A stretch of 64,000 bases of DNA from a virus (Duplodnaviria > Heunggongvirae > Uroviricota > Caudoviricetes), in IMG/VR virus record IMGVR_UViG_3300021979_000001, positions 2,948 through 66,947 of that record; one strand, given 5' to 3'. Below the pieces are notes generated by a model that saw only the letters and a program-made list of their open reading frames with translations, had not been told where the DNA came from and did not search any database. Position numbers and translations under genes: made by a program. How positions within the stretch are numbered: the stretch's first letter is position 1; each line of letters starts with the position of its first letter. Positions 830-3,420 of this stretch are shown here, piece after piece.

Positions 830-1010
830 TTAACCATAGCCATCCCCATAATCAAACCCACGATCATACTCATGACACGACCTGGCCCGTCCCAAAACTA
901 GAGCCATATTCATTACCATGACCCGAACCATAACCATCATTAGGTGACGCATATTTAATATAATTTAATTTTATTTTATTTTATTTTATTTTATGTATAT
1001 ATTCATGATA
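830..1010 (-). pseudogene. decayed array member (subfamily B-like), coordinates approximate
   Basis: minus strand reads ATG AAT ATA TAC ATA AAA TAA (MNIYIK-stop) followed by an (AAAAT)n tract; the Gly-X-like tail remains downstream. Confidence 0.4.
965..996. repeat. (ATTTT)n microsatellite inside decayed array copy
   Basis: ttttattttattttattttatt visible at 966-995. Confidence 0.8.
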
Positions 1011-1087
1011 TGTTGTTCGAGTAAAACCAGAATCACTTATATTATAACTCAACTATTACATTATTGGGTAAAATCGTCTCCATCGAT

Positions 1088-1315
1088 TTAACCAAAACCA
1101 TGACCATAACCAAAACCATTTCCGTAACCGTCACCAACCCCATCACCATAACCATCCCCATAACCATAACCGTCACCATCTCCCTGACTATCCCCATAAC
1201 TATTGCCATAACCAAAACCATAACCTTCGCCATCACCATCGCCAGGACCATCACCATACTCGTCGTCATTGGTTATTAATGGTATCGAATAATATAAATT
1301 ATAAATTGTAACCAT
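1088..1315 (-). CDS. Gly-X repeat small protein, subfamily A
   Basis: N-term MVTIYNLYYSIPLITNDDEYGDG. Confidence 0.6.
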   Translation of the reverse strand: MVTIYNLYYSIPLITNDDEYGDGPGDGDGEGYGFGYGNSYGDSQGDGDGYGYGDGYGDGVGDGYGNGFGYGHGFG

Positions 1316-1335
1316 AACTGGTAACCTTTTGTTCT

Positions 1336-1566
1336 TTAATAATAACCATCCTCTGATCCACCCCCAAGCCCATCTCCATCACTATCCCCATCCCCATACC
1401 CATAGCCATCTCCATCCCCATAACCATGACCATCGCCATCCCCATAACCATAACCATCCCCAGACCCATAACCCAACACCGTTCCACAATCATGCCCATG
1501 CGTCTCGTCATTGGTTATTAATGGTATCGACGAATATAAAATATAAATTATAACCATAACTGGCAA
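1336..1566 (-). CDS. Gly-X repeat small protein, subfamily A
   Basis: N-term MPVMVIIYILYSSIPLITNDETHGHD; core of (GYGDGD)n. Confidence 0.55.
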   Translation of the reverse strand: MPVMVIIYILYSSIPLITNDETHGHDCGTVLGYGSGDGYGYGDGDGHGYGDGDGYGYGDGDSDGDGLGGGSEDGYY

Positions 1567-1577
1567 TCGTTTATCCT

Positions 1578-1847
1578 TTAATCATAACCCGCGCCATTCC
1601 CATGACCATTACCAATACCATGCCCACCGCCATAGCCACCACGCCCATTCCCTAAACCATGCCCATCACTATCCCCATAGCCAAACCCATTCCCATAATA
1701 TGAGACATAACCAGAACCAAAACCATTTCCAGAACCAGAACCATCACCATTCCCAATACCATCACCATTCCCCAAGCCATCACTATCATCATCGCCATCA
1801 TTGTATGAACTGGAATTGATATAATTTAATTTTATGGATATATTCAT
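1578..1847 (-). CDS. Gly-X repeat small protein, subfamily B
   Basis: N-term MNISIKLNYINSSSYNDGDDDSDG. Confidence 0.6.
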   Translation of the reverse strand: MNISIKLNYINSSSYNDGDDDSDGLGNGDGIGNGDGSGSGNGFGSGYVSYYGNGFGYGDSDGHGLGNGRGGYGGGHGIGNGHGNGAGYD

Positions 1848-1878
1848 AATTCACGCACCTGGTGAAAAATAAGTTGAA

Positions 1879-2190
1879 TCAGTCATAACCATTACCATTA
1901 CCATATCCATATCCATATCCATCCCCATCACTATTCCCATCACCATCCCCAAAACCATTACCATAACCATGACCATAATCTGAAATAGAATCAGAATCAT
2001 TCCCGTGGCCCTTACCAGAGCCATCATTTAGACCATAGCCACTCCCATTCCCAAAACTATCATCATCATCATCATCATCATCATCATCATCATAACCATC
2101 CCAATCATCATAACCACCCCCATCACTATCATCATCGCCATCATTGTATGACCCGTATTTGATATAATTTAATTTTATGTATAGATTCAT
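1879..2190 (-). CDS. Gly-X repeat small protein, subfamily B, with poly-Asp insert
   Basis: N-term MNLYIKLNYIKYGSYNDGDDDSDG; internal run of 11+ Asp encoded by a (GAT)n microsatellite. Confidence 0.6.
   Translation of the reverse strand: MNLYIKLNYIKYGSYNDGDDDSDGGGYDDWDGYDDDDDDDDDDDSFGNGSGYGLNDGSGKGHGNDSDSISDYGHGYGNGFGDGDGNSDGDGYGYGYGNGNGYD
2059..2093. repeat. (CAT)n/(ATG)n trinucleotide microsatellite (poly-Asp on minus strand)
   Basis: catcatcat... x11 on plus strand, in frame inside the CDS 1879..2190. Confidence 0.8.
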
Positions 2191-2220
2191 TAGATGTCGC
2201 TCCGGTAAAAATAAGTTAAA

Positions 2221-2442
2221 TCATTTATAACCATAACCATAACCATCGCCAGAACCATCTCCATTCCTCTCCCCAGAACCATCACCATGACCATCACCAT
2301 AACCAATACCAGAACCATTCCCATAGCCATGACTATAACCAGTCCCATGCACCGAACCATCCGCAAAACCATGACCAAACCCATATGTCTCGTCATTGGT
2401 TATTAATGGTATCGAATAATATAAAATATAAATTGTAACCAT
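2221..2442 (-). CDS. Gly-X repeat small protein, subfamily A
   Basis: start moved to MVTIYILYYSIPLITNDETYGFG. Confidence 0.55.
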   Translation of the reverse strand: MVTIYILYYSIPLITNDETYGFGHGFADGSVHGTGYSHGYGNGSGIGYGDGHGDGSGERNGDGSGDGYGYGYK

Positions 2443-2469
2443 AACTGATAATCTTTCTTTTTTAATCAT

Positions 2470-2650
2470 AACAATCCCAGCCCCAAAACCATGACCGGAA
2501 CTATCATTATAAACAATACCGGAACCAGAATCATAATCATAATCATAATCACAACCAGAGCCATCATAGCGTGACCAGGATTTGATATAATTTAATTTTA
2601 TTTTATAGAGATAATCAGGATATGTTGCTCCGGTAAAAACTGAATAAATT
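2470..2650 (-). pseudogene. decayed array member (B-like remnant), coordinates approximate
   Basis: Gly-X-like sequence and the 'ttgatataatttaattttat' leader remnant are present but the start codon is lost (ataatc instead of atattcat); no ORF in the Gly frame. Confidence 0.35.
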
Positions 2651-2675
2651 ATATTATAATTTAATTATTGCTTTA

Positions 2676-2903
2676 TTAGTAAAACTCCGATCCAGAACCA
2701 TGGCCCTTTCCATATTTCTTACCATATCCAGAACCAGAACCATAATCATACCCACACCCTTCACCATCGGCAGAACCATCGCGATTGCCATCCCCAGTGC
2801 CATACTCATTCCCATTGCCATGTCCATAGCTATATCCATATCCATGAACGGTGTCATGATCAGATATATTGATGTAAAATGACTGGGTTATGGATGATTT
2901 CAT
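2676..2903 (-). CDS. Gly-X repeat small protein, subfamily E
   Basis: likely start MKSSITQSFYINISDHDTVHGYG; the track ORF reads in frame through the spacer up to 2960, where the next copy's stop lies. Confidence 0.5.
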   Translation of the reverse strand: MKSSITQSFYINISDHDTVHGYGYSYGHGNGNEYGTGDGNRDGSADGEGCGYDYGSGSGYGKKYGKGHGSGSEFY

Positions 2904-2959
2904 GAATGGGTCATACCTGTAAAATGAATTATTCATAATGTAATCCAATTGTTGCATCA

Positions 2960-3163
2960 TTAGCTATGATCACGGCCATAACCATGCCCATCCCCATAAC
3001 CATCACCATCAACATGACCACTCGCATAGCCACGACCATAACCAGAATCAAGACCATCACCATAACCGAAATCACGACCAGAACCAGAACCATTCCCATA
3101 GCCATATGTCTCGTGATTGGTTATTAATGGTATCACATAATATAACTCATATATTGTAACCAT
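2960..3163 (-). CDS. Gly-X repeat small protein, subfamily A
   Basis: N-term MVTIYELYYVIPLITNHETYGYG. Confidence 0.6.
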   Translation of the reverse strand: MVTIYELYYVIPLITNHETYGYGNGSGSGRDFGYGDGLDSGYGRGYASGHVDGDGYGDGHGYGRDHS

Positions 3164-3183
3164 AACGGATGATCTTTCTTTTT

Positions 3184-3417
3184 TTAATTATAGTCCGCGC
3201 CATTCTCATGACCATCACCGCAACCATCACCATAAATATGACCATAACCATGACCATAACCATATCCATGACCATCACCATGACCGAAACCACGACCAGA
3301 ACCAGAACCATTCCCATAGCCATATGTCTCGTGATTGGTTATTAATGGTATCACATAATATAACTCATATATTGTAACCATACCTGTAACCATACCTGTA
3401 ACCATACCTGTAACCAT
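3184..3417 (-). CDS. Gly-X repeat small protein, subfamily A, with tandemly repeated start region
   Basis: N-term (MVTG)x3 then MVTIYELYYVIPLITNHETYG; a 12-nt unit repeated 4 times creates alternative in-frame ATGs. Confidence 0.55.
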   Translation of the reverse strand: MVTGMVTGMVTGMVTIYELYYVIPLITNHETYGYGNGSGSGRGFGHGDGHGYGYGHGYGHIYGDGCGDGHENGADYN

Positions 3418-3420
3418 ACC
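3371..3420. repeat. 12-nt tandem repeat (accatacctgta)x4 at the 5' end of an array gene
   Basis: taccatacctgtaaccatacctgtaaccatacctgtaaccatacc. Confidence 0.8.

Follow-up and report, generated by a model that had tools for sequence, protein, structure and literature searches.

The object of this work is a tandem array of small genes located at the left end of a 64,000-nt stretch of viral DNA (the whole stretch is hereafter referred to as the window), which corresponds to positions 2,948 to 66,947 of the IMG/VR record IMGVR_UViG_3300021979_000001 (Caudoviricetes), and, within this array, three simple-sequence tracts: a pentanucleotide repeat, a run of GAT codons, and a 12-nt repeat lying across a start codon. 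The array, whose genes are rich in Gly-X dipeptides, occupies positions 1..18594 (minus strand) and continues past the left end of the window. It consists of 56 intact genes (50-103 aa), five pseudogenes, three intact mini-open reading frames (mini-ORFs), and two gene-end fragments, all of them on one strand; the units in the window number at least 64, and at least eight more genes lie to its left on contig L003, retrieved from ENA (L003 1403-3739). In each unit (about 230-330 nt), an upstream element specific to the array is followed by a conserved leader that extends over about 20 codons and by a (GGN-NNN)n core; most of the intact genes are spaced by 20-68 nt.

The N-terminal leader (about 20 aa) follows the pattern M-x-x-x-I-x-x-x-[YF]-[YC]... 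and occurs in several sub-classes, which include MVTIYNLYYSIPLITNDETYG, MNISIKLNYI, MNTSIELYYCVNSHLTNDDF, MKPYINQSFYINIY, and MNLPINQYFCIHADDHETG. The encoded proteins are small and strongly acidic (29% Gly, 11.5% Tyr, 10% Asp, 8.7% Ser, 7.7% Asn, and 4.7% His) and are predicted to be disordered, since AlphaFold2, run on the alignment of the 56 paralogues, returned a predicted local distance difference test (pLDDT) value of 41 and a predicted template modeling (pTM) score of 0.12. Most of the array genes are preceded by the element TTATTTTTTACAGGTGTGACC...ATG, placed about 10-25 nt upstream of the start codon; 16 of its 17 matches in the window fall inside the array (among them those at 5853-5870, 7083-7100, and 7391-7408). 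The genes of the MVTIY class do not possess this element and start 20 nt after the previous stop codon, with an AAAGG ribosome-binding site. Scans for sigma-70 promoters and intrinsic terminators did not reveal any excess over the shuffle expectation.

The frame that encodes glycine is the coding frame and is under constraint, because start codons, stop codons, and spacing are regular and because the proportion of nonsynonymous differences (pN) is lower than that of synonymous ones (pS) in close paralogue pairs. The GC skew, which ranges from -0.36 to -0.51 along the array and is about 0 elsewhere in the window, is due to the presence of the GGN codons on the minus strand and does not represent a replication signal.

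The first of the three tracts reads (ATTTT)n on the plus strand, where it is perfect from 968 to 994, and corresponds on the coding strand to (AAAAT)5 at 968..992; it is the sole long non-triplet simple repeat of the array. It is located near the 5' end of what was the coding sequence of a dead copy (810-1087), the ATG of which is found at 1007-1005. The original prediction had placed this tract right after a premature stop codon; both the tract and the decay of the copy are there, but their order is not the one proposed, since the tract itself generates the TAA at 989-987 (ATG AAT ATA TAC ATA AAA TAA). At the same site, six intact paralogues and one mini-ORF harbor a single AAAAT unit (ATAAAATTAAAT, encoding I-K-L-N), and the site is expanded in two dead copies only, with five units in 810-1087 and two units in 2443-2675. 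Any number of units equal to or higher than two places a TAA in frame (ATA AAA TAA), and only exactly one unit reopens the frame. Even with one unit, the ORF of the copy 810-1087 would still stop after 37 codons, owing to a downstream frameshift.

The other two tracts, which turned out to be as predicted, belong to intact genes and are in frame. The gene 1879..2190 (minus strand, 103 aa) carries a poly-Asp expansion encoded by (GAT)11 at 2059..2091, that is, eleven consecutive GAT codons corresponding to residues D34-D44. Shorter GAT runs (D3-D5) are present in the paralogues 1578..1847 and 8521..8763, and it is likely that runs of this kind were the seed of (GAT)11. The gene 3184..3417 (minus strand, 77 aa) has a triplicated start region, due to a 12-nt unit (TGTAACCATACC / GGTATGGTTACA) that is repeated 4.2 times at 3373..3422 in frame across the start codon (4.6 copies with 97% identity according to Tandem Repeats Finder), and its product begins with MVTG-MVTG-MVTG-MVTIYELYY, i.e., with MVTG three times before MVTIYELYY. 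The unit duplicates the segment GGT-ATG-GTT-ACA; in normal copies GGTTAC occurs twice, 13 nt apart, and this GGTTAC...GGTTAC direct repeat is a plausible slippage seed of the tract.

Eight large gaps, of 169-278 nt, interrupt the series of intact genes, and they correspond to the eight sites at which decayed or miniature copies had been indicated; such copies are indeed found there, namely five pseudogenes and three intact mini-ORFs (all on the minus strand). The three-frame translation of the pseudogene 810..1087, compared with its intact paralogues, revealed that it belongs to the MNISIKLNY leader class, that its upstream element is intact, and that, besides the in-tract TAA, its core contains a second frameshift. 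In the pseudogene 2443..2675 the ATG was changed to CTG (2618-2616), (AAAAT)2 is found at 2595-2604, and the stop codon was lost, the frame running on into the gene 2221..2442; this copy also contains (GATTAT)3.8 at 2529-2551. The remaining three are the pseudogene 12027..12270, which lost the start codon and the first part of the leader, the pseudogene 14044..14313, in which a small deletion in the leader caused a frameshift, and the pseudogene 15771..15989, with an ATG changed to ATT and a leader/core frameshift; none of them contains a microsatellite. The mini-ORFs 3662..3754 (30 aa, with an intact upstream element), 7764..7883 (39 aa, called as a gene by JGI), and 8814..8918 (34 aa) each possess a complete leader and a very short core. 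The two fragments, also on the minus strand, are an orphaned 3' end at 5520..5622, produced by the premature stop of the gene 5623..5844 and bearing a hexamer repeat at 5601-5621, and a short remnant at 12514..12616 that resembles a gene 3' end. About 8% of the array units are dead.

Thus, the idea that copies were disrupted or altered through microsatellites holds in part: slippage-type repeats do alter genes and occur in two of the five pseudogenes, in both cases at the AAAAT site, but the other three decayed without any contribution of a microsatellite, through loss of the start codon or small deletions. The upstream element is intact in both AAAAT pseudogenes and in the mini-ORF 3662..3754, and each of these three copies lies directly upstream of a run of element-less MVTIY genes; it is possible that their 5' regions have been retained to drive the MVTIY genes downstream.

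The distribution of the repeats was then compared with the rest of the window and with 50 dinucleotide-preserving shuffles of the array, a long tandem repeat being defined as a perfect one of at least 20 nt and at least three copies. The 18.6-kb array contains 21 of them, and none was found either in the other 45.4 kb of the window or in the shuffles. The unit is 3, 6, or 12 nt in 20 of the 21 tracts, the one exception being AAAAT, and the excess over the shuffles consists of in-frame core repeats. No long non-triplet tract exists in the 56 intact genes; tetra-, penta-, hepta-, and octanucleotide repeats (at least three copies) are not enriched in the array in respect to the rest of the window, and homopolymers of at least 7 nt are rarer in it (0.27/kb vs. 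0.84/kb outside), the longest one being T8. Larger exact duplications, of 18, 24, and 42 nt, are all in frame: the 42-nt tandem duplication at 14947..15033, in the core of the gene 14878..15183 (minus strand), exemplifies a general mode of change, and others are found at 4672-4707 (18 nt, two copies) and 11255-11305 (24 nt, 2.1 copies), besides the 12-nt repeats (3.2-3.4 copies) at 5410-5450 and 5665-5703. This pattern is that of purifying selection acting on a slippage-prone sequence, and contingency loci show the opposite one. Since only in-frame changes are tolerated in living copies, it also indicates that the ORFs in the Gly frame are real genes under constraint.

The analysis of the 18 closest paralogue pairs revealed that leaders and cores have diverged to a very different extent. 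Using protein-guided codon alignments (when the cores were aligned directly as nucleotides, numerous short gaps appeared that were spurious), we obtained a pS of 0.077 and a pN of 0.030 for the leaders vs. a pS of 0.354 and a pN of 0.194 for the cores, corresponding to a synonymous divergence about 4.6 times higher in the latter; the pooled ratio of nonsynonymous to synonymous substitution rates (dN/dS) of the cores is about 0.47. In six pairs the leaders are identical at the nucleotide level and the cores are 10-15% divergent. The amino-acid gaps in the closest pairs are mostly even-numbered, i.e., they are multiples of 6 nt.

In addition to this, the 5' and the 3' parts have different nearest paralogues in seven of the nine testable genes. 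As an example, the head of the gene 2676-2903 is 98% identical to that of gene 10820 and its tail is 91% identical to that of gene 3811; the tail of the gene 2960-3163 is 93% identical to that of gene 11143, their heads sharing less than 50% identity; and the gene 5899-6147 combines a head 96% identical to that of gene 5235 with a tail 97% identical to that of gene 7128, whose head is only 58% identical. Further mosaics include 4607-4882 and 9938-10153. This head/tail discordance implies that recombination within the periodic cores reshuffles the units. Tandem duplications of 300 and 309 nt are also present. Judging from these identities, the copies from 12271 onward (the right-hand third, at the upstream end of the array), whose best head identity does not exceed 0.75, are old, and a recent expansion occurred on the left, where many copies have partners at an identity of at least 0.90. 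The array thus evolves by birth and death: it is composed of head-to-tail paralogues interspersed with pseudogenes and truncated copies, and its members recombine with each other.

A further comparison was possible with other assemblies of the same sample. Four additional contigs overlapping the window were retrieved (scaffolds 1280, 6945, and 26 of ENA ERZ23499214, and Ga0232639_1001263 of JGI 3300021977), plus a Logan contig from SRR7168051; they apparently all derive from biosample SAMN09060588, the JGI sample being presumably linked to it. The overlapping contigs are 100% identical to the window, with the exception of L003, which shows two mismatches near the contig end. Three contigs span the tracts (two contigs for each tract), with identical tract lengths and without gaps in any of the tracts; different assemblers therefore reach the same consensus, which says nothing about minority variants. 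The JGI contig L002 equals L003 except for one 236-nt gene unit that is missing in the former (at L002 7414; L003 1697-1932, to the left of the window), a difference due either to true variation in copy number or to the collapse of a unit during assembly. Exact look-ups of the poly-Asp and MVTG proteins retrieved only the same three contigs, and searches with the two proteins at E <= 1e-8 returned no match, the queries themselves included, the cut-off being too strict for low-complexity queries. In a cluster look-up of the tract-bearing proteins, seven of the eight sequences were absent from the collection.

On the basis of these findings, we suggest, with a probability of about 0.7, that the tracts are traces left by replication slippage and by unequal recombination within a tandem family with a fast turnover, rather than a programmed switch. 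According to this model, the cores, owing to their 6-nt periodicity, are by nature liable to slip and to recombine out of register. In living genes only the changes that are a multiple of three would survive selection, the protein being merely lengthened or shortened; the surviving in-frame changes would include (GAT)11, the 12-nt start triplication, the 6- and 12-nt core repeats, and the duplications of 18-42 nt. By contrast, a duplication of AAAAT at the I-K-L-N codons (ATAAAATTAAAT) would cause a frameshift and generate an in-frame TAA. This may or may not have been the initial lesion of each dead copy; once inside a dead copy, the tract would be free to expand neutrally, up to two units in one case and to five in the other. 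Other copies would die through ordinary point mutations and deletions or would shrink to mini-ORFs, and new copies would arise via unit duplication and head/tail recombination. A rapid ON/OFF switching would have no part in this scenario.

Some points weigh against this interpretation. The data are compatible with fast changes in the length of (GAT)11 or of the 12-nt repeat; a perfect triplet tract of 33 nt and a perfect 12-mer tract of 50 nt are long enough for instability and could give rise to a functional in-frame heterogeneity. Moreover, a multigene family with a pentanucleotide repeat where the leader is encoded has, formally, the layout of the Neisseria opa genes, and the one-unit difference between assemblies could reflect a real heterogeneity of the population.

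Among the alternatives, the one that fares best, even though we consider it unlikely, is that the triplet, 6-nt, and 12-nt tracts and the core recombination have been kept by selection to diversify rapidly, throughout the phage population, the length and the sequence of the Gly-X cores, as in antigenic variation or in the mycobacterial PE_PGRS family. This idea is in agreement with the strong excess of in-frame tandem repeats in the cores, with the presence of conserved leaders followed by divergent and mosaic cores, and with the one-gene-unit difference between the two assemblies. The PE_PGRS family, in which in-frame 12-bp insertions and gene conversion between tandem duplicates have been described (PMC1762029), appears to be the closest analogue in behavior: in both cases a conserved N-terminal module is joined to a Gly-rich repetitive C-terminal region, and tandem duplicates exist. 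However, the two families do not share any sequence homology; the array repeats are Gly-X, where X is mostly Tyr, Asp, Ser, Asn, or His, the array proteins are tiny (50-103 aa), and at least 64 units are joined in one head-to-tail array in a phage genome. In addition to this, the pooled dN/dS of the cores does not reveal any sign of positive selection, the fraction of dead units is the one predicted by a neutral birth-and-death turnover, and purifying selection alone would also leave an excess of in-frame repeats.

A more ambitious version of this idea, which we regard as rather improbable, is that the whole array is a phage diversification cassette, in which the leader sets a common fate (e.g., processing by the nearby twitch/SPASM-like radical SAM enzyme, packaging, or targeting) and the cores are deliberately prone to slippage and recombination, a sort of in-frame contingency. 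If this were true, the population should carry a cloud of core lengths, sequences, and copy numbers, of which the one-unit difference would be a first glimpse. If core length or copy number does vary within the population, the array would represent a new kind of phage diversity generator.

A much poorer agreement exists between the data and a classic contingency system, in which hypermutable repeats would be selected to switch the array genes ON and OFF, as in the opa genes or in the polyG tracts of Campylobacter phages; we consider it very improbable. The original prediction had called the tracts reminiscent of contingency or phase-variable loci, a reading that the data do not support. In Neisseria, a (CTCTT)n repeat in the region of the opa genes coding for the signal peptide is responsible for translational phase variation, and the array, too, has a pentanucleotide repeat in the region coding for the leader, at the 5' end of one member of a large family. 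The opa genes form a multigene family with conserved ends and variable middles (PMC4235727), and the array resembles them in these features. Unlike that of opa, the array repeat is expanded in two dead copies only, the intact genes having one unit at the site, and the unit places a TAA in frame with no read-through; besides, no sequence homology exists, the array genes are in tandem (the opa ones are dispersed), and they belong to a phage genome and not to a bacterial pathogen. That phages can use hypermutable tracts is indicated, as far as the reference list of PMC10877375 goes (Sorensen et al. 2021), by the polyG tracts in the receptor-binding genes of Campylobacter phages (Fletchervirus). 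In both cases, on the basis of that listing, simple repeats are encoded by the phage within its own genes; however, theirs would be homopolymers that frameshift intact genes, whereas in the array there are no long homopolymers (T8 at most) and homopolymers are depleted.

The nature of the repeats argues against ON/OFF switching. For a gene to undergo translational phase variation, it must be otherwise intact and its repeat unit must not be a triplet, since triplets do no more than add amino acids (PMC4235727); only one of the 21 long tracts is non-triplet, and all the 56 intact genes are devoid of such tracts. Since 20 of the 21 tracts have units that are multiples of a triplet, the AAAAT repeat lies in a dead copy, and homopolymers are less frequent inside the array than outside, what defines this type of phase variation is absent. 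Furthermore, at least two AAAAT units always give an in-frame TAA, and the second frameshift indicates that no AAAAT number restores a full-length ORF in 810-1087. Lastly, it is just as improbable that the tracts or the decayed copies arose as artefacts when a repetitive region was sequenced or assembled. Even though short-read assemblies break in the array (contigs of 8 kb and 3.7 kb end there) and two of them differ by one unit, the separate JGI and ENA assemblies match the window base for base at the three tracts and at the remnants (two contigs per tract), perfect 5-, 3-, and 12-nt tracts of 25-50 nt are well within the read length, and paralogues that are 70-90% identical are divergent enough to be assembled.

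The microsatellites themselves are therefore an ordinary mutational signature, and they matter mainly as a record of the evolution of the array, that is, of slippage, unit duplication, head/tail recombination, and copy death. The array in which they lie is unusual and is the more interesting object. Indeed, more than 18.6 kb of a 457-kb phage genome are devoted to a single family of tiny acidic proteins rich in Gly, Tyr, and Asp, which is very large for a phage, and no homologue sharing the leader was found among 1.8 billion representative proteins.

The source of the array proteins is a single contig of 457,165 bp held by both JGI and ENA, and the window is a portion of a jumbo-phage genome. 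It encodes, among others, the large subunit of ribonucleotide reductase (RNR) with an intein, a DnaB-like helicase (52% identical to the helicases of Sinorhizobium phage Phosso and Agrobacterium phage Atu_ph07), an SPFH protein, a K+ channel, an amidoligase, and a virion protein. DNA searches did not detect any near match to the array or to its flanks among the INPHARED phages, where the distant matches are short, compositional only, and directed to Gly-rich segments of unrelated phage genes. Similarly, exact-pattern scans for the lineage gave no hit in IMG/VR, in JGI metagenome contigs (two patterns), and in GTDB genomes, and no loci related to two non-array neighbor proteins (161 and 128 aa) were found in IMG/VR. 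Rfam and tRNA scans of the window yielded nothing.

Pfam and NCBIfam scans of the array proteins gave only compositional matches below threshold (TrAA12, SGP, KRTAP, and a serine-rich protein family); this is also true for the sulfur globule proteins (PF17228), whose best match, with an E-value of 0.3 and 12.4 bits vs. a cut-off of 26.7, is compositional only. In profile searches against 5.8 and 1.84 billion proteins, full-length matches including the leader came only from the 457-kb contig or from its array extension; the other matches are hundreds of metagenomic and phage proteins containing (G-[YDSN])n modules. These modules share the composition and the dipeptide periodicity of the array cores but, unlike the array cores, they follow unrelated N-terminal domains; in many metagenomic proteins (P0004, P0009, P0124, P0128, and others) the module is joined to DUF7666, TIGR02996-like, or 'DLLxAGAC' domains. 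(G-[YDSN])n appears to be a widespread and uncharacterized low-complexity module.

Small sets of genes with the same leader plus Gly-X-core architecture were observed in two other, unrelated phage contigs. In the contig L010 (JGI 3300079457), a DUF6948 gene lies between two small genes of this type, one on each side (10001-11003); a DUF6948 gene (19269-19664, minus strand) also adjoins the array in the window. It is possible that the association between DUF6948 and leader-Gly-X genes is conserved; no literature on DUF6948 was found. The phage contig L011 (JGI 3300026484) harbors three such paralogues (3289-3609, 4848-5189, and 5306-5575) with a conserved leader of about 35 aa (xFKLNIYYQTLKxIH...). 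A hidden Markov model of the window leaders does not detect the leader-Gly-X proteins of either L010 or L011; the architecture is the same and homology is unproven.

The minus strand, which carries the array, also encodes a radical SAM protein (21579-22667), at a distance of about 3 kb from the array's upstream end; its matches to twitch/SPASM peptide and cofactor maturases are weak and below threshold (52 bits with the best maturase model vs. a cut-off of 380). An 84-aa ORF (22673-22927), which does not match any family, lies directly upstream of it. The occurrence of many small paralogous ORFs with a conserved N-terminus of about 20 aa and very variable C-terminal parts recalls the precursors of ribosomally synthesized and post-translationally modified peptides (RiPPs), e.g., prochlorosins, and the proximity of a twitch/SPASM-like radical SAM gene provides a RiPP-like context. 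The resemblance is architectural only, in that the array cores are 40-80 aa long, of low complexity, and contain few Cys residues, unlike RiPP precursors. Membership in a RiPP precursor family is not supported: no family match above the cut-off was obtained, the neighboring ORFs did not give any hit, and no recognition element, protease, or exporter was found nearby.

Two other observations concern the rest of the window. The RNR large subunit is split over two ORFs on the plus strand (43934-45673 and 45818-47092), separated by 144 nt; the first one ends in the N-terminal splicing region of an intein and the second one begins with the C-terminal splicing region, an arrangement that may correspond to a split or a degenerate intein. 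Lastly, a gene coding for an EcoRV-like restriction endonuclease (27034-27771, plus strand) adjoins the one encoding the K+ channel, which carries an RCK/TrkA domain (27743-28828, minus strand); both of them represent an unusual cargo for a phage.

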